In this document: piece after piece, positions 10,570 through 18,797 of the stretch
Layout of the letters: each line of letters starts with the position of its first letter
Numbering within the stretch: the first letter of the stretch is position 1
DNA from: Oscillospiraceae bacterium
GTDB lineage: Bacteria > Bacillota > Clostridia > Oscillospirales > Ruminococcaceae
Reading direction: 5' to 3'
Assembly: GCA_045532595.1 (NCBI GenBank)
Contig: JAZSGG010000008.1
Location: 969 to 64,968 of the forward strand
Length of the DNA: 64,000 bases
Program-made: the position numbers and the translations under genes
The notes under the pieces: generated by a model
Databases searched by the model: none
Seen by the model: only the letters and a program-made list of their open reading frames with translations
Told to the model about the DNA's origin: nothing

Positions 10570-12405
10570 TCAGATCCAGAAAGCATACAGCTCAAAATAC
10601 AGAAGGAAAGCTGTTGTAAGCACACAGAAAATTGCTGTGATGATATGCCTTACCTTTACGGATATCTTCATCTCTTTTGATGTGAATACGTTTTTTATAA
10701 GCAGAACTGCAGCTGCTACCATAGCAAGCATTGACAGCATAACGATGATACTCATTATTACTGTACCGACCGAAGAGAACGGGAATACAAGGAAGTAAAG
10801 CGCAACTGTCAGCACAGAAAGAACGATACCGCCCTGACCCAGCAGTGCGAGCTTAGCCGCTGCATCGCCCTTTCTCTTCTTCAGCATACAGAGATTGATA
10901 ATGAGGAACACCAGATAGATAATACCGATAGCCGCAGTGGCAAATACCCATATAAACTTCAGCATGAATGTTCCGTCGTACATATAATCCGTGAAAGACA
11001 CCTGCAGCAGCGGAGCGTCATCGGAAGTCCTGCCGCCGAATATGACCGTCTTCTGCGAATCCTGTTCAAAGATATATGTATCATCTGCTATTCTTGTAAG
11101 CTTAGCCAGACCGAGAACGCTGTAAACATCCTCATCCTCAGTGGGGGTAGCGCCGAAAAGGGATAAATAGCTTATCATCTTTGCCCAGCCCTTCAGGATA
11201 CCTCTTGCCGATACATAATAGCCTGAAATATCGCTGCGCTCTGTGATCTCGCCGCCTGCCATGCGGGGATTATCCGCAGCATCTCCGAATACTAGCTGAG
11301 GAATGCCGCTGCACATCAGGCTCTCGCCCATCTGATTCGTCACGACCGCAACGCCTGTTTTGCTGACAGGATCAAACATGAGGTTTGCGGAAAAGCCTTG
11401 AGTGTTGCCACCGTGACCCATTACATCCACAGCATAGAAATCATTCCACAGTCCGTGATTGTTTCGGGGGGTAACACCATCGCCATAAAAAGAAGATGCA
11501 GAGAGCATAAGATCGAGAGTCTCCTGCTTTTCAAAAAGCAGGCAGTCATCACTTACAAACGCCTGACCGAATGCGGTGAGATCCGCAAGTGTACCTGTAA
11601 CAGAGCCTGCAGGATACAGCAGGATATAGCTCATACAAGTATCCATCGGCATATCAACTACCTGACCCATCTGCTCCATAACAACGTAGGCCTTTGCCTT
11701 CTCACGCTGAGTGCGCACCCATTCATTGTCACGATAATCCGCAGCAACAGAAGTATGCTCCATGCCGAGCGGCTGCAGGATGTTCTCACGCACATACTCC
11801 GCATAATCCTGTCCGCTCACGCACTCAACTATGTAACCTGCCAGCGCCGCACCCCAGTTGGAATATGCAGTTATCTCACCGGGTTTATTGACCTGAGCAG
11901 GCTCACATGCCTTCAGCGCCTCGCCGAGCGGGATTATATCTGCTTCATCGGCTACCTCAAGTCCGAAAACAGTCTCCTGCCAGCCTGCGTTATGATTCAT
12001 CAGATTGAGCATAGTTATCGGCTCATCATAGCTAAGCTTTTTGAAGAAACCTTCAGGCAGATATGCGCGGACATTTTCATTCAGATCGAGCTTTCCCTGC
12101 TCGTACAGCTGCATTGCACTCACCCATACGAACAGCTTGGATATACTTCCCCACTCATAAACAGTGTCATCGTCTGCCTTGACGGAATTTTCCCTGTCTA
12201 TCTCGCCGAAATGTCCGCTATAGACAACATCCTCACCGACAAAAACAGCTGCGCCAAAGGATGCATACTTACCTTCATTCTCAGCAGCATAAGCTTCTAT
12301 CTCTGCGCCGAAATCAGCAGAAACTGTTTCCACCGCATTAACAGACGAAGCCATCACGCTCAGCGACATCACCGCAACCAATAGCGATGACAATATCTTC
12401 TTCAT
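10570..12405 (-). CDS. Secreted/membrane serine hydrolase (beta-lactamase/AmpC-like fold) with C-terminal TM helices
   Basis: Signal peptide MKKILSSLLV; SISK (SxxK), YSN, GHGG; hydrophobic C-terminus. Confidence 0.85.
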   Translation of the reverse strand: MKKILSSLLVAVMSLSVMASSVNAVETVSADFGAEIEAYAAENEGKYASFGAAVFVGEDVVYSGHFGEIDRENSVKADDDTVYEWGSISKLFVWVSAMQLYEQGKLDLNENVRAYLPEGFFKKLSYDEPITMLNLMNHNAGWQETVFGLEVADEADIIPLGEALKACEPAQVNKPGEITAYSNWGAALAGYIVECVSGQDYAEYVRENILQPLGMEHTSVAADYRDNEWVRTQREKAKAYVVMEQMGQVVDMPMDTCMSYILLYPAGSVTGTLADLTAFGQAFVSDDCLLFEKQETLDLMLSASSFYGDGVTPRNNHGLWNDFYAVDVMGHGGNTQGFSANLMFDPVSKTGVAVVTNQMGESLMCSGIPQLVFGDAADNPRMAGGEITERSDISGYYVSARGILKGWAKMISYLSLFGATPTEDEDVYSVLGLAKLTRIADDTYIFEQDSQKTVIFGGRTSDDAPLLQVSFTDYMYDGTFMLKFIWVFATAAIGIIYLVFLIINLCMLKKRKGDAAAKLALLGQGGIVLSVLTVALYFLVFPFSSVGTVIMSIIVMLSMLAMVAAAVLLIKNVFTSKEMKISVKVRHIITAIFCVLTTAFLLYFELYAFWI

Positions 12406-12452
12406 AATATCAGCCTCCAGATTTGTTGTTATTGTATATGTTCGATATACAC

Positions 12453-12481
12453 AATATACCACCTTTAATATGATTTGTCAA
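12453..12481 (-). promoter_or_regulatory. SigA promoter of the serine hydrolase
   Basis: TTGACA-17-TATATT on the minus strand. Confidence 0.65.
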
Positions 12482-13452
12482 TAGGTTTTTTTATTTTTAC
12501 CACAAATTCTTTCATCTATCCTTCTTGCAAAGGAAAATGTATATGGGATAAAATACTTGCTCCAGAAATTAAGTGCTGTAGGATTAAGAGTTTCAAAATC
12601 CACGCCGAGATGCGTGACGCCCTCGTCAGAAAGAGTGTCACGAATATACCCGAGAAGCGATTGTGCGAGACCTCCGCTGCGATATCTCTCATCAAAATAC
12701 GCACCACAGATATTTTTCATCTTTGCATGTTCGGTAATGAAGTTTTCCCCATCATCCTCCAATGAGATGAAACCTATTATTTCACCATCAGATTCCGCAA
12801 CAAATACACGAATGTCCCTCCTCTGAAACCATTCCTCATAACGTGCCTTATCTGTCGGATAGAATATAGGTGAATTTTCAAGATGCTTCACAAGTCCATT
12901 TCTCAGCTTTCTTATTCTTTCAAATTCATCTGAGAGCAATTCACTGAAATGAACTTCGCTTCCGTGATTTTTCAAGGAAAGCTTTGATATCTCACGCACT
13001 GCGTCACAGCACCGTATTCCAAATCCGTTAAGCACAAACGAGTGTGCGATTTCATCATCATGCGCATATCTGCTCAGAGCGCAGCTATAAACACCGCTGT
13101 TCACAAATTCCTCCGCTACACTCGCAAGCAGCATTGAAGCCAGTCTGCCACGATCTTCATACTCATAGGAAAACGCACTTCCACCGAGAGGCGAAAACAC
13201 ACCCTTAACATCACCTAAAAATCCATCCCATGGGCCTGCGAACAAAAGATATCCCACAAGCTTGCCATCACGCACCGCAACCTTACCGAAAGGCTGACTG
13301 CTAAGCCAATTCAGAACTCCCGTCAGCATTTCGGAAGTATCTTCTTCGGGGAGATCTGGACAATACTTTCTTTCCTCTGCAAGCTCGCTCAGAGCAAGCT
13401 TTACGGCATCGCCGATATATGCTACTGTAAATCTCTCAAACACTATGCTCAT
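12478..13452 (-). CDS. Tandem-domain GNAT acetyltransferase
   Basis: FVAESDGEIIGF...RYRSGGLAQSLL...ALNFWSKY; 4-bp overlap with rsgA. Confidence 0.75.
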   Translation of the reverse strand: MSIVFERFTVAYIGDAVKLALSELAEERKYCPDLPEEDTSEMLTGVLNWLSSQPFGKVAVRDGKLVGYLLFAGPWDGFLGDVKGVFSPLGGSAFSYEYEDRGRLASMLLASVAEEFVNSGVYSCALSRYAHDDEIAHSFVLNGFGIRCCDAVREISKLSLKNHGSEVHFSELLSDEFERIRKLRNGLVKHLENSPIFYPTDKARYEEWFQRRDIRVFVAESDGEIIGFISLEDDGENFITEHAKMKNICGAYFDERYRSGGLAQSLLGYIRDTLSDEGVTHLGVDFETLNPTALNFWSKYFIPYTFSFARRIDERICGKNKKTY

Positions 13453-14408
13453 TTTCTGTACCCCGCTTTCATTCTCTTTGCCTTGAAATTCTCATCATAA
13501 AGCCTTTGATACAGCCGCCAGCGTTTTTCACTGATCTCACCCGCTTCAAGAGCCTGTTTTACGGCACAGCCGGGCTCGGTATCATGCCTGCAATTGCTAA
13601 ACCTGCACAGCGGAAACAGATCCGTTATTTCAGAAAAAGTGTCATCTATTCCCTTGTCGATATCACATACGCCTATCTCTCTCATGCCGGGGGTGTCAAT
13701 TATCGTAACTCCGTTGTCAAGAACGAAAAGCTGCCTGTGAGTAGTCGTGTGGCGACCTTTGCCGTCATCCTCACGGATACTGCTGGTCTTCATTACCTCC
13801 TTGCCTGCGATGGCATTAAGCATCGTGGATTTTCCTACGCCCGACGAACCGATAAGCGCAATAGTAACGCCTTCTCTGAAATACTTCTGCAGATCTGACA
13901 TACCCTCACCTGTAACAGAGCTTACAGCTATCACATCAGTTTTTTCAGAAACGCTGCGCACCTCTGCGATATAGTCCTCAATATTAAAGCAAAGATCTGC
14001 CTTGCTTAGCACCACCACAGGCATACCGCCGCCCTGAACAGTCACCGAAATATATCGTGCTATCCTGCCGATATTGAAATTCTGATTGAGCGAGGTCACT
14101 ATGAACACATAATCAAAATTCGCTGCAATGGGCTGTTCCACAAGAGTTTTCACATAACCGTCCGCATGACCGCTGCGGTCGGGTCGGGAGAGATAGCTTT
14201 TTCTCTCCGATATGCTGTCAATAAGAGAATCTCCATATGGATTGTAGATGACCTCCACATAATCTCCCACAACGGGATAATTGCCGCTGTTGTAGAGAGT
14301 TCCTTTCATTCTGGCGCTTATCTCTCCCATATCCCCCATGAGAGTATAACGCTCACGCTGTACCTCAGATACTCGCATAGTAAGTGTTGTTTTTTCGTTA
14401 GTAGTCAT
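13449..14408 (-). CDS. rsgA: Ribosome small subunit-dependent GTPase A (RsgA family, probable paralogue)
   Basis: SKADL, GSSGVGKST, GRHTTT, DTPGMRE, zinc finger CRFSNCRHDTEPGC; start 14408 or 14429. Confidence 0.9.
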   Translation of the reverse strand: MTTNEKTTLTMRVSEVQRERYTLMGDMGEISARMKGTLYNSGNYPVVGDYVEVIYNPYGDSLIDSISERKSYLSRPDRSGHADGYVKTLVEQPIAANFDYVFIVTSLNQNFNIGRIARYISVTVQGGGMPVVVLSKADLCFNIEDYIAEVRSVSEKTDVIAVSSVTGEGMSDLQKYFREGVTIALIGSSGVGKSTMLNAIAGKEVMKTSSIREDDGKGRHTTTHRQLFVLDNGVTIIDTPGMREIGVCDIDKGIDDTFSEITDLFPLCRFSNCRHDTEPGCAVKQALEAGEISEKRWRLYQRLYDENFKAKRMKAGYRK

Positions 14409-14524
14409 TGTAATAACCATTCCTTTCATATACTTTCATCAATCTTTTGCATTACCTCGGCAATATCCGACAAATGCTGCGGCACGAGAAAAGAAAGGAC
14501 ATCCCAAAATCTGAATTTGGGCGC

Positions 14525-14556
14525 AAAAATGCCGCAGCATGAACACACTGCGGCAT
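14525..14556 (-). terminator. Terminator inside the rsgA leader (attenuator)
   Basis: ATGCCGCAG-loop-CTGCGGCAT then TTTT on the minus strand. Confidence 0.75.
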
Positions 14557-14576
14557 AAATATCTCATAAGAAATAG

Positions 14577-14642
14577 TTATTTCAATATTGCCGAGGTAAT
14601 CCTGCTCTTACAATTATTCGATCTTCTCATAATGTAGGTCAT
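14577..14642 (-). CDS. Putative 21-aa leader peptide MTYIMRRSNNCKSRITSAILK
   Basis: SD GAAAGAGAGGT; lies between a SigA promoter and a terminator upstream of rsgA. Confidence 0.6.
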   Translation of the reverse strand: MTYIMRRSNNCKSRITSAILK

Positions 14643-14706
14643 CTTAATTACCTCTCTTTCCTGAAATTTCAGTTTTCGAAAACATGTGTTTTCAAACACC
14701 TTATTA

Positions 14707-14735
14707 AGTATAACACCATAATAAAGATTTGTCAA
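14707..14735 (-). promoter_or_regulatory. SigA promoter of the leader-rsgA-GNAT unit
   Basis: TTGACA-17-TATACT on the minus strand. Confidence 0.8.
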
Positions 14736-14765: not shown

Positions 14766-15332
14766 TTACGCATTATAGTACATATCATAAACCACATATC
14801 CGCTGATATCGCTGAGTGAGCCTTCTGAGGTCTCCATGCACATCATGCACCTCGGCTCCTGCATCGGGAATCCGCTTGTGGGATGGATGCCGAATTCCGA
14901 CGAGGTCTTAAAGCCTACACGGTTATAAAAATGATAGTCACCCTCCACGTTTATGCCCTTGAATCCGTACTTTTTCACTTCCTCGATACCGAGCTTCAGC
15001 ATGGTTATTCCGACGTGCTGATGGAAATAGTCCGCATGAACGGAAACAGGTGCAAGCATAGCAATGCTGCCGTCGTTGATATGACCGCCCTCTTTGGTCT
15101 CAGACAGCGGAAATCTCGAAAACAGGAAATGTCCCACTATCTTTCCGTCAAGCTCTGCTACAAAGGAAAGCTCGGGGATGTAATACTCTGACATTCTGAT
15201 CTCCTCAATCAGAGCGATAATGTCACTGCCGTCGGAATAATCAGTTCCCTCGCTGAACGACCGCAGCACGAGAGAGATGATATCCTTGTAGTCCTTCGGT
15301 GTTTCGGGTCTTATTGTAATGTCGTTTCTCAT
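14766..15332 (-). CDS. GNAT N-acetyltransferase (YhbS-like)
   Basis: IRPETPKDY; LSFVAELDGKIVGH; LAPVSVH; GDYHFYNRVGF. Confidence 0.85.
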   Translation of the reverse strand: MRNDITIRPETPKDYKDIISLVLRSFSEGTDYSDGSDIIALIEEIRMSEYYIPELSFVAELDGKIVGHFLFSRFPLSETKEGGHINDGSIAMLAPVSVHADYFHQHVGITMLKLGIEEVKKYGFKGINVEGDYHFYNRVGFKTSSEFGIHPTSGFPMQEPRCMMCMETSEGSLSDISGYVVYDMYYNA

Positions 15333-15395
15333 TAATTCTCCACTTAATTCATTGTAATTGCTTAGTTCATAACAAGTTTCAATATACACACTTTT

Positions 15396-15980
15396 TTATT
15401 CTTTATGCTCCTCAATTGAAAAATGCGACTGAATCATCTTGGCGACTTCTTCTGCAGCTAAAGCAGTGTTATCAATTTTAATATAGTTTTCAAAGGGCAG
15501 GCTCTCTCCGTCGTAGGAATTGAGACGATATTTCTCACTCGTATTTCTCATTTCCTCCTCACTCCATTCAAGATCGCGTTTAGATTCCTTGTGAAGCAAT
15601 CGGTTTTCGCTTTTGTTTCGGATAAGGCGTTCTTCAAAATCAGCGCAAAGCTCGACAACATAACAGCTTGCTCCATTTGCCTTAAATTGCTCTATTACAT
15701 TCTGCAGATAGTCAAACTCGCTCTGCAAATCGAAAGCACACATATATGTGAATATCAATCCACGGAAATCCCCCTTAGCAAACAGTTCAAACACCGTTTT
15801 CCGAATGGTTTCGTTCAAAATGCACCATTCTTTTTCAGAGGCAGAAAAAAGCTTTCGGGTCAGCTCAATGGACATGTGATTATGAAACAAGCGTAGTCCC
15901 GTAAGCTTTGCAAGCTCCTGTCCCACGGTCATTTTTCCTACAGCGTGAGGACCCAGAATAATTACAAGCGACTTGGACAT
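15396..15980 (-). CDS. P-loop nucleoside/shikimate-kinase-like protein
   Basis: IILGPHAVGKMTVG...LRLFHNH; VELCADFEERLIRNKSENRL. Confidence 0.8.
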   Translation of the reverse strand: MSKSLVIILGPHAVGKMTVGQELAKLTGLRLFHNHMSIELTRKLFSASEKEWCILNETIRKTVFELFAKGDFRGLIFTYMCAFDLQSEFDYLQNVIEQFKANGASCYVVELCADFEERLIRNKSENRLLHKESKRDLEWSEEEMRNTSEKYRLNSYDGESLPFENYIKIDNTALAAEEVAKMIQSHFSIEEHKE

Positions 15981-15981
15981 T

Positions 15982-16416
15982 TTAGTTCTCCTTGTACATA
16001 AACATAATATATTCATTGTCAACAAAGCCGTTTTTATGATAGAAATGAGGTGCAGGTGCATACTTATTCGTGCAAAGAGTAAGTCCTGCAAGCTTATGCT
16101 CCGAAACGTATCTTTCCGCAACCTGTATCAGTGAAGTGCCATGGCCGCTGCGCTGAAGCTCGGGACGTATGAACATCTCATCAATAAACAGCTCGCTGTT
16201 GTTCCACCATATCTTTTCATGTGCAAACAGCGCACCGACGATCTTTCCGTCATCCTCAACTACAAAGCCGACGAACTTACTTGCATAGAAATAATCCGCA
16301 AGATATGCTGCGGCGGTCTCAGCAGTCCAGTGACACTGCCACATCTCATTGTTATATACAGCACAGAGTATCTCTGCGCACTGCGGAATATCCGCTTCCA
16401 GCATTGCTCTTATCAT
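15982..16416 (-). CDS. GNAT N-acetyltransferase
   Basis: LFIDEMFIRPELQRSGHGTSLI; APHFYHKNGF. Confidence 0.85.
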   Translation of the reverse strand: MIRAMLEADIPQCAEILCAVYNNEMWQCHWTAETAAAYLADYFYASKFVGFVVEDDGKIVGALFAHEKIWWNNSELFIDEMFIRPELQRSGHGTSLIQVAERYVSEHKLAGLTLCTNKYAPAPHFYHKNGFVDNEYIMFMYKEN

Positions 16417-16417
16417 G

Positions 16418-16894
16418 TCAGTCCTCCGTCATCACAACCGAGAACGCAAACGGAACAGCCTTTGCCGTTTTGTTTACGAAATCCACGGTATAGCCTGTGC
16501 CATCCTTGTGAAAAAATCCTTCCTGCGGTTTTATGCGAATATAGCACAAATTATCATCATCCTCGTTATTGTGGAGAAAATACCACTTTTCGAACACATC
16601 TATCAGCTTTTCCCTGATAGCTGCATTATGCCGATCCTTCGGATGCCCGATGACCTCCGCCCCACCGCTGAAGGAATGAGCGTTTCTCGTACAGAGCGAT
16701 ACATTGGGATTCCGCCGTATATCCCTGACCTTTTGCGAGAGGCCATACGCCACCACATAGAAGCATTCACCATCAAAATATGTATCAACATAGCGCTGAT
16801 ACGGTGCGTTTCCGTTTATCGTTGCGAGCGCAAACTGGTAGTCACGCCCGAACATCTCCGTCATGACCTGTATTGCTTTTTCATATTCGTTCAT
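16418..16894 (-). CDS. Pyridoxamine 5'-phosphate oxidase-like FMN-binding protein
   Basis: FALATING..PYQRYVD..FYVVAYGLSQKVRDIRRNPNVSL. Confidence 0.75.
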   Translation of the reverse strand: MNEYEKAIQVMTEMFGRDYQFALATINGNAPYQRYVDTYFDGECFYVVAYGLSQKVRDIRRNPNVSLCTRNAHSFSGGAEVIGHPKDRHNAAIREKLIDVFEKWYFLHNNEDDDNLCYIRIKPQEGFFHKDGTGYTVDFVNKTAKAVPFAFSVVMTED

Positions 16895-16898
16895 ATCA

Positions 16899-17693
16899 TC
16901 ACCTGATACTCATTCTTAGCCTTTCATAAGCTGCGCTCCAGTCTCTGTGGGCATTATCAAGAATGATCTTCTCCACAGGCAGCTCAGAGAGTATTCGAAG
17001 CTCCCTTTCCTGCCGCTCTCTAAGACAGGCTATGTAGCCATCAAAGCCTACGGCGGAAATGATCCTGCCGTAAGTGCCGTTCACATGGTAGTCTATTACT
17101 CCGTCAAGCCAGCCCTCACGCTCGGCGGATGCCTTATTCACGCAATCCGCTATATCATCGTTTCTGAGGTATATCACAACGGGACCCATCGGTGAGATAA
17201 TCTCCGCTATCTGTTGTATGTAATCACGGGAAATGCACTCGTCAAAGCCGAAACGCATCATTGTCTCGCACATGGGATTCTGAAGCAGAACGCAGTTAAA
17301 CACATAAACCGTATCAGCATCTGCATTTTTAACGAAGCTGCGCCACTTTTCAAGCATAACAGGCTTTTCAATTTCCCACGGCAGGAAATCATATATCTTG
17401 TGCTTCAGCAGCCTGTCGAAAAGCTCGCCTTGAAAATGCGAGAGCGGCACAGCAAAGCCATCCGCAGCAGGCTCAGAGCTGCATTTTATCGCAGACTGCT
17501 CCTCAGCCGAAAACTCAGATAATGTGCTTTCGCTGAGGTATGCATGAAATTCGTAGTCCGCAGGATGATCTCCGCTGCCCTCGTCCACATAAACGACCTT
17601 GCTATGTTCTTTCAGAAGTTCTGCAACAAATGCAGAAGTCGTGCTTTTACCCGAACACGGAAGCCCCTCGATGATAAATAATCTGTTATTCAT
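16899..17693 (-). CDS. P-loop NTPase/kinase-like protein
   Basis: IIEGLPCSGKSTTS Walker A. Confidence 0.7.
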   Translation of the reverse strand: MNNRLFIIEGLPCSGKSTTSAFVAELLKEHSKVVYVDEGSGDHPADYEFHAYLSESTLSEFSAEEQSAIKCSSEPAADGFAVPLSHFQGELFDRLLKHKIYDFLPWEIEKPVMLEKWRSFVKNADADTVYVFNCVLLQNPMCETMMRFGFDECISRDYIQQIAEIISPMGPVVIYLRNDDIADCVNKASAEREGWLDGVIDYHVNGTYGRIISAVGFDGYIACLRERQERELRILSELPVEKIILDNAHRDWSAAYERLRMSIR

Positions 17694-18438
17694 AAAATCT
17701 CTCTAACTGTTCCTCACTGCGCCTGTATTCCTTGCCATAATCATCACGGATGAGTATCTTGTGATCCACAAGCTCACGGCGGAGTGTTACGGGATCGCCG
17801 TAGGTGTGCCACTCATTAAGCAGGGCGTTGATCTCCTTTTCAGTGTACACCTTGCCGCTTACGAGCTTCTCAGAAAGATACACGAATGCGTGCAGCTTCA
17901 TCTTTCTTTTTGCAGGTAGAGCGGTAAGTCTGCCCTCATTATCAAGGAAGCTTTTAAGTGCGGCCATGCTCTCCCCGCAGCGTGAAATTCGGCGGTATAT
18001 CCTTGCGGTATCGCCGCATTCCTCGACCGCATCGCAGAAATAGTGGAAGCCGCACTTCTCGTAAAACTCAATGTGGGATGTGAGCAGATATACCGTGTTA
18101 CAGCCGAATGCACTCAGCTCCGCGCTTATATAGTCCATCAGGTACTTTGCAAGACCCTGACCACGGTAGTCCTCCTCGGTGAAAACCGCACAGATATTGG
18201 GAGCAAGATCCTTTCTGTCATGGAAATCGTTCTCGATAACGCCCATGCCGCAGACTATCTTTTCACCATCAAGAATAACGTACCACTGCACTCTGCCCGT
18301 TTTATCTTCAATACATTCCTGCATACTCTCAAGATAAGCTTCGACGGGAACGCCCCATTTCTGATTGAACCAAGCTGCGGCAGTCTCTGCCATCTCTGCA
18401 TGGTCACGTATTTTTATCAATCTGTAATTCTTGTTCAT
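17686..18438 (-). CDS. GNAT acetyltransferase fused to a DUF2087-like domain
   Basis: ENDFHDRKDLAPNICAVFTEEDYRGQGLA; C-terminal GRLTALPAKRKMK...YTEKEINALL..WH...DPVTLRRELVD. Confidence 0.75.
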   Translation of the reverse strand: MNKNYRLIKIRDHAEMAETAAAWFNQKWGVPVEAYLESMQECIEDKTGRVQWYVILDGEKIVCGMGVIENDFHDRKDLAPNICAVFTEEDYRGQGLAKYLMDYISAELSAFGCNTVYLLTSHIEFYEKCGFHYFCDAVEECGDTARIYRRISRCGESMAALKSFLDNEGRLTALPAKRKMKLHAFVYLSEKLVSGKVYTEKEINALLNEWHTYGDPVTLRRELVDHKILIRDDYGKEYRRSEEQLERFYE

Positions 18439-18797
18439 ATATAAATCCTCTGATCCATATTGAATATCAGCTGCCATGCGCTGTCCTGCCATTTCCATGT
18501 GGATGTCACACGGAAAAGTCCGGCAAGATCTGCATTCTCAGCACAGTCTGCTATAGTTCTTACGATATAATGCACCTGAATATGACTATCTGTTTCACAC
18601 AGCACTTCAAACTCGCTTATCTCATAGCCCGAGATCCCATATCCCGCCACAAGCTCAGCATACTGAGTGCCTGTGAGCCTTGCGCCGCCGCAAAGCATCA
18701 CCGCATCAGGTGAAACAAGCTGAGAAAACGCCGCAGCATCGCAGTTCTTCGCTGCCTGCCACATAGCATTTTCAAGTGAAAATATATTTTCTTTCAT
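18435..18797 (-). CDS. DUF4440/NTF2-like protein
   Basis: LENAMWQAA...FSQLVSPDA...RVTSTWKWQDSAWQLIFNM. Confidence 0.7.
   Translation of the reverse strand: MKENIFSLENAMWQAAKNCDAAAFSQLVSPDAVMLCGGARLTGTQYAELVAGYGISGYEISEFEVLCETDSHIQVHYIVRTIADCAENADLAGLFRVTSTWKWQDSAWQLIFNMDQRIYI

Follow-up and report, generated by a model that had tools for sequence, protein, structure and literature searches.

In the trp attenuator of Escherichia coli, four RNA segments compete in the pairings 1:2, 2:3 and 3:4; the operon is OFF when the leader is not translated or is translated fast, and a delay of the ribosome before segment 2 turns it ON. The erm/cat leaders (ermC, ermB and ermD) encode a leader peptide and keep the Shine-Dalgarno (SD) sequence of the main gene (SD2) hidden in the ground state, exposing it when a ribosome occupies the leader. 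In the vmlR leader, an anti-antiterminator that holds an upstream open reading frame (uORF), an antiterminator with an apical hairpin, a terminator and an SD-sequestering hairpin follow one another, the SD sequestration is relieved by long-range pairing and induction is brought about by ribosomes arrested at initiation (PMC9226507). Here we analyze a 64,000-nt stretch of DNA from an Oscillospiraceae bacterium (GenBank assembly GCA_045532595.1, contig JAZSGG010000008.1, positions 969 to 64,968 of the forward strand; this whole stretch is called the window below), in which a leader with a uORF and a terminator stands before the genes for an RsgA-family GTPase and a tandem-GNAT acetyltransferase. 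We consider it fairly probable that this leader is a cis-acting ribosome-dependent attenuator that combines transcriptional and translational control with a logic like those of trp and vmlR. A search of the literature and of Rfam found neither a paper nor a family entry for this leader.

An earlier note on this DNA, made from the letters alone, had likened the layout to that which controls vmlR, lmo0919, hflXr and erm/msr genes, and the order of elements is indeed that of vmlR (PMC9226507). Both leaders are induced, here according to our model, by a ribosome held at or near initiation. The two leaders have no sequence similarity, and they differ in that the uORF has ∼21 codons here and 3 in vmlR, that the SD of the uORF is a strand of the anti-antiterminator here and single-stranded in vmlR, that a second terminator 5′ arm (T5′) and a second SD (A′), both further downstream, would act here as a latch, and that the cargo is a probable RsgA paralog and a tandem GNAT here but an ABC-F protein in vmlR. 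With trp, the leader in our model shares the four-segment logic and the ON/OFF pattern, but segment 1 is the SD region here and codons within the uORF in trp, runs of regulatory codons are absent here and an additional translational layer would follow the terminator. With erm/cat, it has in common a leader peptide and, by prediction, an SD2 freed by refolding, but it has no conserved arrest peptide, has an intrinsic terminator after the uORF and ahead of the gene and would hide SD2 by a distant CU tract, whereas a neighboring segment does so in erm/cat.

The uORF toiL of the E. coli topAI-yjhQ operon reports stalls that occur at several positions and are caused by at least five antibiotic classes, and the stalls remodel the structure around the downstream ribosome-binding site (PMC12121999). 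Its termination is Rho-dependent and takes place inside the open reading frame (ORF), whereas the terminator here is intrinsic and lies in the leader, and the sequence and host phylum of the two systems are unrelated. The operon controlled by toiL includes a GNAT (YjhQ). For the cargo, the closest parallel is the WblC/WhiB7 regulon of Streptomyces coelicolor, in which an RsgA/EngC paralog (SCO6149), distinct from the housekeeping SCO5211, is induced by antibiotics that target translation (PMC7157823). That induction proceeds via a transcription factor and the genes are not in one operon, unlike the cis-acting leader described here. Acetyltransferases are induced alongside the RsgA paralog in this regulon.

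Promoter, uORF and terminator of the leader

All features of the leader and its cargo are on the minus strand, and coordinates are positions in the window. A sigma-70-type promoter (14707–14735) is composed of TTGACA (14735–14730), a 17-nt spacer and a TG-extended TATACT (14712–14707). A scan of 5 kb gave 11 promoter-like sites, of which this one, with a match of 11/12, is among the best two, and TTGACA and the −10 box are kept at the same positions in related loci. From this promoter we infer a transcription start near 14700. The uORF is preceded by the SD GAAAGAGAGGT (14660–14650), which lies in an extended SD (SD1, GAAAGAGAGGUAAU, 14647–14660) whose AGGUAA is invariant in the 31 leaders described below. 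The uORF has 21 codons (14577–14642), from the ATG at 14642 to the TAA at 14579–14577, and encodes MTYIMRRSNNCKSRITSAILK; its codons 1 to ∼11 form an A-rich sensing window and its codons 15–20 carry a segment that we call arm A. The intrinsic terminator T (14524–14556) begins 20 nt past the uORF stop codon and consists of the 5′ arm T5 (AUGCCGCAG, 14556–14548), the 3′ arm T3 (CUGCGGCAU, 14537–14529) and U5. Across the leaders T is a conserved and covarying GC-rich stem of 9–10 bp followed by U5–6. It is separated by ∼115 nt from the rsgA start codon (ATG, 14408–14406), which together with SD2 (GAAAGGA, 14427–14421) occupies 14406–14427. We take this ATG, and not the in-frame ATGs upstream of it, as the true start of rsgA because in one of the related loci (L009) the GGAAUGG block has its upstream ATG in another frame. 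On the promoter, SD, uORF, U-tailed terminator and distance to rsgA, our analysis agrees in every element and position with the earlier note.

Related leaders were searched for through RsgA relatives, through a uORF pattern filtered with an nhmmer profile and through a GNAT profile, and the combined searches recovered the complete layout in 31 non-redundant loci. The filter was used because the looser uORF pattern gave mostly chance matches; an exact-pattern genome scan for the two arms gave no matches. The leader of the window folds better than all of 100 shuffled sequences (z = −3.46), and with this and the complete recurrence in 31 loci the layout as a whole exceeds chance.

Predicted competing helices and their covariation

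Beyond the elements listed above, the leader contains two perfect inverted repeats that had been overlooked in the earlier note, one of 16 nt between 14600–14585 (arm A) and 14466–14451 (A′) and one of 11 nt between 14540–14530 (the T3 side) and 14484–14474 (T5′). Arm A (AUUACCUCGGCAAUAU, 14585–14600) is an anti-SD-like toggle whose partners are SD1, T5 (via CGGCA at 14593–14589) and A′ (AUAUUGCCGAGGUAAU, 14451–14466), the last being its distal partner or decoy, and T5′ (UGCCGCAGCAU, 14474–14484) is a second, downstream copy of the terminator 5′ arm that is complementary to T3. The core of SD1 (GAGGUAAU, 14654–14647) doubles as the 5′ strand of the anti-antiterminator. The helices that these segments can form exclude one another along a chain, SD1–A–T5–T3–T5′, with A–A′ in addition, and this chain had also escaped the first reading. 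The leader has three further elements. The hairpin H1 (14557–14579) holds the uORF stop codon, abuts the terminator and forms the apex of the antiterminator; the TTNTTT pause motif of NusG was not found in it. The hairpin H2 (CCCAAA...UUUGGG, 14503–14521) directly follows the U-tract and is dispensable, since it is absent in L053. The CU tract (GUCCUUUCUUUUCU, 14487–14500) is conserved and is the candidate anti-SD for the SD2 of the main gene.

Pairs were counted in an alignment of 31 leader sequences (alignment A3) as the fraction of alignment cells paired, with 500 shuffles and slid partner columns as controls. The highest fraction was that of T3:T5′ (97.9%, three pairs with compensatory change), followed by the antiterminator A:T5 (CGGCA:UGCCG with H1 nested; 96.8%, one pair with compensatory change), H1 (95.5%, three pairs), SD1:A (91.8%, with an invariant core), T5:T3 of the terminator (91.4%, four pairs), A:A′ (86.6%, four pairs), H2 (85.2%, all six pairs) and CU:SD2 (85.1%, with weak covariation). 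None of the 500 shuffles matched the observed paired fraction or covariation score, and slid partners were 26–58% paired. The AUUACCUCGG of arm A is nearly invariant and its sole changes are compensated in its partners. In the lineage of L148–151, a single change runs through A, A′, T5, T3 and T5′ together, and independent co-changes of T3 and T5′ are found in L053, L156 and L009. Comparison of the leaders hence documents, at the level of sequence, their anatomy and conservation, the coding signature of the uORF described below and compensatory changes in A:A′, T3:T5′, T, H1 and H2.

A 5′-proximal hairpin of the transcript (H0, UUUGAAAAC-acau-GUUUUCGAAA, 14674–14696) was also predicted by folding, with eight pairs by RNAalifold, five of which show compensatory changes. 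We ruled out a repressor site or DNA operator at this position: the sequence varies with compensation while the pairing stays, and H0 is hence an RNA hairpin. For the 16-nt inverted repeat, an origin from a repeat or a miniature inverted-repeat transposable element was also considered, which was rejected as the window holds no further copies.

A probably translated uORF with a mostly unconserved peptide

Each of the 31 leaders has a frame of 19–24 codons that begins at the first AUG past SD1, so that the uORF, whose conservation upstream of homologs had been proposed as a check in the earlier note, is present throughout and varies in length by whole codons. The AUG is separated from arm A by 12, 13, 14, 16 or 17 codons, never by a fractional number, the stop codon lies 3–5 codons past arm A, and synonymous variation is seen at codons 2 and 3 (ACC/ACA/ACU and UAC/UAU). 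Because the length changes only by whole codons, the uORF is in all likelihood translated. Its peptide is a different matter. The N-terminus differs in diverged members (MKILNIK, MFQNERS, MIDDMMMF, MAYFENK and MTCFRS), and the C-terminal stretch that is conserved, S-[RKE]-I-[TA]-[SL]-[AV], maps onto arm A, where the nucleotides show no synonymous variation. The rare non-synonymous changes in arm A are compensated in the RNA partners, as in L148–151 where UCG is changed to UUG (Ser to Leu). Judged from this compensation of a Ser-to-Leu change in the pairing partners, the constraint on the 3′ part of the uORF acts on the RNA and not on the peptide.

Two other uses of this part of the leader were rejected. 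Readthrough of the stop codon, by which a ribosome would enter the terminator after miscoding, was dropped as the frame after the stop codon shifts between loci through indels and early stops follow the uORF stop codon in L097 and L009. A longer ORF running from T5′ or H1 into the main gene was also dropped, since the peptides differ by locus and an A-poor composition accounts for the open frames.

Ribosome position, antiterminator and SD2 in predicted folds

To represent the transcription stage, the RNA was truncated just before T3 in 30 leaders and folded with the ribosome footprint masked. In the free nascent RNA, SD1:A had a probability of ∼0.95–1.0 and the antiterminator of at most 0.05 in 28 of the 30 leaders, and with a ribosome on SD1/AUG1 the antiterminator rose to at least 0.5 in 24 leaders and to at least 0.76 in 21. 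When the position of the stall was scanned and only the RNA 3′ of the ribosome was folded, the antiterminator was allowed with codons 1 to ∼11–12 in the P site, and the CGGC of arm A was covered from around codon 13. In these predictions the antiterminator predominates before T3 emerges if SD1 is occupied. A view drawn from equilibrium folding, that the leader has no antiterminator, was revised after the comparison with vmlR and the folding of the RNA before T3.

In the full-length RNA, we distinguished a State I, in which SD1:A and T are formed and SD2 is bound by the CU tract, from States II and II′, in which A:A′ is combined with T or with T3:T5′, respectively. States II and II′ exclude CU:SD2 because the pairings are topologically incompatible. 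For 14 of 16 leaders, the ensembles contain pairing of the CU tract with SD2, and across leaders SD2 was 74–100% paired where the probability of SD1:A was high and 0–25% paired where that of A:A′ was high. In nearly all leaders, enforcing the helices left SD2 paired in State I and either free or half-free in States II and II′. The three states of the window leader are near-isoenergetic (−71.5, −72.2 and −71.4 kcal/mol, within 1 kcal/mol). From these models we infer a dependence on ribosome position and its coupling to SD2.

In the attenuator that we favor, the promoter would yield a leader with a very strong SD1 and a translated uORF of ∼21 codons. Without a ribosome, SD1 (GAGGUAAU) would pair with arm A (AUUACCUC...) as the anti-antiterminator, T would form and transcription would stop. 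With normal translation, the ribosome would cover arm A while T is made, with the same outcome. A ribosome held at the start codon or at codons 1 to ∼11 would block SD1:A and leave arm A exposed, the CGGCA of which could then pair with UGCCG in T5, beneath H1 as the apical hairpin, to give the antiterminator that lets transcription read through. In the readthrough RNA, A′ would capture arm A and T5′ would capture T3, as decoys that lock the induced fold. The locked fold would bar CU:SD2, exposing SD2 for translation of the RsgA paralog and/or the tandem GNAT, and transcripts that leak through in the ground state would keep SD2 paired and be translationally silent. By analogy with vmlR, toiL and the WblC-induced RsgA paralog, translation stress, for example by ribosome-targeting antibiotics, is the most plausible natural signal.

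Several observations weigh against this attenuator. Once T3 is present, T has a probability of at least 0.97 in equilibrium folding for every ribosome position, and the antiterminator, of only 4–5 bp plus H1, persists at equilibrium in only 3 of the 30 leaders and forms poorly in the predictions for L008, L109 and L140. Because it is short and outcompeted by T at equilibrium, the antiterminator must act kinetically. SD1:A is beyond a test by covariation as its core never varies, and in CU:SD2 a frequent U-to-G change breaks a central pair and covariation is weak. Homologs of the GNAT are also found without the leader, in Ruminococcus albus AR67, L133, L138 and loci behind a chemotaxis-receptor gene. 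The low-depth contigs of one metatranscriptome (run X2) were uninformative on expression, and the one that spans the terminator (14247–14730) may derive from DNA.

Alternative explanations

The alternative that survives best, though we hold it to be unlikely, is a switch acted upon in trans, in which RsgA or the GNAT regulates its own expression, the 30S subunit is sensed directly by the SD- and anti-SD-like elements or a small molecule binds the leader as a riboswitch. SD1 is unusually long, and a weak antiterminator may need a stabilizing factor; arm A resembles AUCACCUC and the CU tract resembles CCUUUCU, both of which we take to be part of the 3′ end of Firmicute 16S rRNA. Against such a switch, the leader has no match in Rfam 15, where the best score (Spot 42, 19.8 bits against a gathering score of 80) is due to the terminator only, and no Rfam family reaches its gathering score on either strand of the 64-kb window. 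The conserved structure comprises simple helices only, with no conserved complex ligand pocket. The conservation of uORF length in whole codons points instead to translation as the input, and the leader occurs both in operons that have rsgA and in operons that lack it.

An amino-acid-sensing attenuator of the trp/his type, in which hungry codons, most plausibly for Asn or else for Lys or Met, would slow the ribosome, is a little less credible and in our estimate improbable. Its logic of four competing segments equals that of the classical attenuators, codons 2–12 are enriched 3.5-fold in Asn, 2.9-fold in Lys and 5.4-fold in Met, and around two Asn codons are still found in most of the diverged uORFs. 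These codons, which are also rich in Thr, contain no runs of any amino acid and only a scattered enrichment; with 50% A in the region, selection for an unstructured loop could account for it. The sensing window of L157 lacks Asn altogether, and the cargo lies in an island of small-molecule-modifying genes with no tie to the supply of Asn, Lys or Met.

The earlier note had assigned the sensing to K-S-R as a macrolide arrest motif (+x+), at which arrest of the nascent peptide would relieve the terminator. We find this very unlikely. K-S-R is encoded in the window, and the N-terminus MTYIMRR resembles MTHSMRLR, which we take to be that of the ErmDL leader, but a motif of this kind (K/R-S-K/R, codons 12–14) is found in only 12 of the 31 leaders and is replaced by M-S-R, E-S-R, I-S-R, V-S-E and others in the remaining 19. 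In the stall scan, no antiterminator could form with a stall at K-S-R, because a ribosome with Ser13 in the P site covers arm A. RNA pairing accounts for what is conserved in the peptide, and the N-terminus is not conserved in the diverged members.

Least of all do we credit an independent small gene for a small RNA or a 21-aa micropeptide, with T as its terminator and rsgA and the GNAT expressed by unrelated means, for although a strong promoter and a strong terminator should make a ∼175-nt transcript the main product, A′ and T5′ downstream of T covary with A and T3 upstream and so tie both sides of T functionally, no promoter-like site was found between T and SD2 in the promoter scan of 5 kb or by eye in the conserved sequence, the same cargo always stands behind the leader and the peptide is poorly conserved.

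Distribution of the leader and its cargo

The 31 leaders were all found in metagenome-assembled genomes, assigned to Oscillospiraceae, Acutalibacteraceae, Ruminococcus, Ruminiclostridium, Acetatifactor and Lachnospiraceae and mostly from the guts of ruminants and other animals. In about half of them, rsgA and then the gene for the 324-aa GNAT follow the leader, and in the other half the GNAT gene is directly behind the leader without rsgA. The tandem GNAT is therefore the constant cargo. The earlier note had taken rsgA and the acetyltransferase gene as one controlled module; a GTPase and a GNAT gene do lie downstream in the window, but rsgA belongs to the module in only about half of the loci. 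A cargo-independent scan of metagenomes yielded one additional copy of the leader and no new cargo, with one of 14 matches being a true leader, and searches of plasmids for the leader found nothing. A block of GAAAGGAAUGGUUAUUACAAUG (14406–14427 in the window) is nearly identical whether rsgA or the GNAT gene comes next, which suggests either that rsgA was lost by a deletion that spared its first codons or that the block is part of the regulatory RNA.

Decayed copies were found as well. A locus search with a single GNAT protein recovered only one such copy (L017), in which the leader is retained and rsgA and the N-terminus of the GNAT are deleted. Residues 1–235 of the GNAT are missing in L007 (3984–4214), an internal stop interrupts the GNAT in L009 (3960–4946), and L155 (1781–2042) holds fragments of rsgA only. 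A distant rsgA-GNAT pair in a Bacillota genome (L161) lacks the uORF leader. In L161 (1140–1260; compare L162, ∼2200–2330), this pair has a terminator-like hairpin, GACCGCAG...CUGCGGUAUUUUU, preceded by AAUGAUUAUG, a combination that resembles the H1/T junction of the leader and could be a remnant or a coincidence.

Contigs from run X2 showed two further arrangements. In one contig, 14539 is joined to 14636, skipping 96 nt with most of the uORF, arm A, H1, T5 and a few bases of T3; the shorter side of this junction is just 24 nt. In another, the match is limited to 14516–14660 and the flanks are unlike those of the window. These contigs may represent a natural leader-deletion allele and a second copy of the leader in a different context.

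Cargo proteins and gene neighborhood

The RsgA-family GTPase of the window (13449–14408) matches PF03193 (2.8e-46) and TIGR00157 (160.7 bits against a cutoff of 100). The protein is complete, its residues 61–312 align with solved RsgA structures and CRFSNCRHDTEPGC is present; with the GTPase core, the C-terminal zinc-finger region and a score above the TIGR00157 cutoff, it has the features that define the RsgA class. Its score against E. coli RsgA exceeds that against Bacillus subtilis YloQ, and a separate lineage of RsgA paralogs fits this order of scores. The comparison of sequences indicates that the protein is probably a second RsgA paralog.

The tandem-GNAT acetyltransferase (12478–13452, 324 aa) has a PF00583 match in its C-terminal half. 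Its AlphaFold (AF2) model contains two GNAT-like domains, with a predicted local distance difference test score of 85.9 and a predicted template modeling (TM) score of 0.83. The nearest solved folds are VipF, a glucosamine N-acetyltransferase of Clostridium acetobutylicum, MAB_4324, MshD and Eis-type proteins, with a similarity at the level of the fold only (TM 0.4–0.66 and 10–17% identity for VipF, 5kf1, MshD and Eis2). From the model, an amino-sugar or aminoglycoside-like acceptor would be compatible with this fold. Every one of the 344 homologs is named only ‘GNAT family N-acetyltransferase’, no NCBIfam equivalog matched the protein, and an exact-protein look-up of the window GNAT returned no record.

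A further step, which we offer tentatively and rate as possible but doubtful, is that the leader is a generic sensor of early stalls with a latch and that the RsgA paralog and the tandem GNAT form a hitherto unrecognized two-part defense against 30S-targeting drugs. A transient delay in the first ∼11 codons would carry the polymerase past the terminator, and the traps A′ and T5′ would make this brief event into a lasting, translatable conformer. The GTPase would then act on 30S subunits that have bound a drug or are mis-assembled, at their decoding center, and acetylation of an amino-sugar-type inhibitor would fall to the GNAT.

In the window and in a related genome (L179), the module lies within a run of genes for small GNATs, DUF2087, P-loop kinase-like, PNPOx, glyoxalase and cupin proteins. 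In the window (14766–18498, minus strand), there are co-directional small GNATs at 15389–14766, 16416–15982 and 18498–17686, the last of which is fused to DUF2087, P-loop kinase-like ORFs at 16121–15396 and 17693–16899 and a PNPOx-like ORF at 16894–16418. In L179 (2806–6690), a similar island before rsgA-GNAT contains five GNATs, DUF2087, DUF4440, glyoxalase and cupin genes. On the other side of the module, a second promoter with a match of 11/12 (TTGACA, 17 nt, TATATT; 12453–12481, minus strand) overlaps the stop codon of the tandem GNAT gene, and a 630-aa beta-lactamase-fold protein with a hydrophobic C-terminal region is encoded behind it (10570–12462, minus strand).

Implications for gut Clostridia

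If true, these findings describe a new family of translation-sensing leaders in gut Clostridia. Its new features are the SD-containing anti-antiterminator, the anti-SD-like toggle in the uORF, the decoy arms behind the terminator, which are supported by covariation, and the cargo. The decoy arms would link the transcriptional decision to the translation of the downstream gene. The leader marks the RsgA paralog and the tandem GNAT as candidates for functions in translation stress or intrinsic resistance in rumen and gut Oscillospiraceae, and its cargo parallels the antibiotic-induced RsgA paralog of the WhiB7 regulon. If confirmed, the system would add to the inducible resistance determinants of the animal-gut resistome and give a function to second copies of RsgA.

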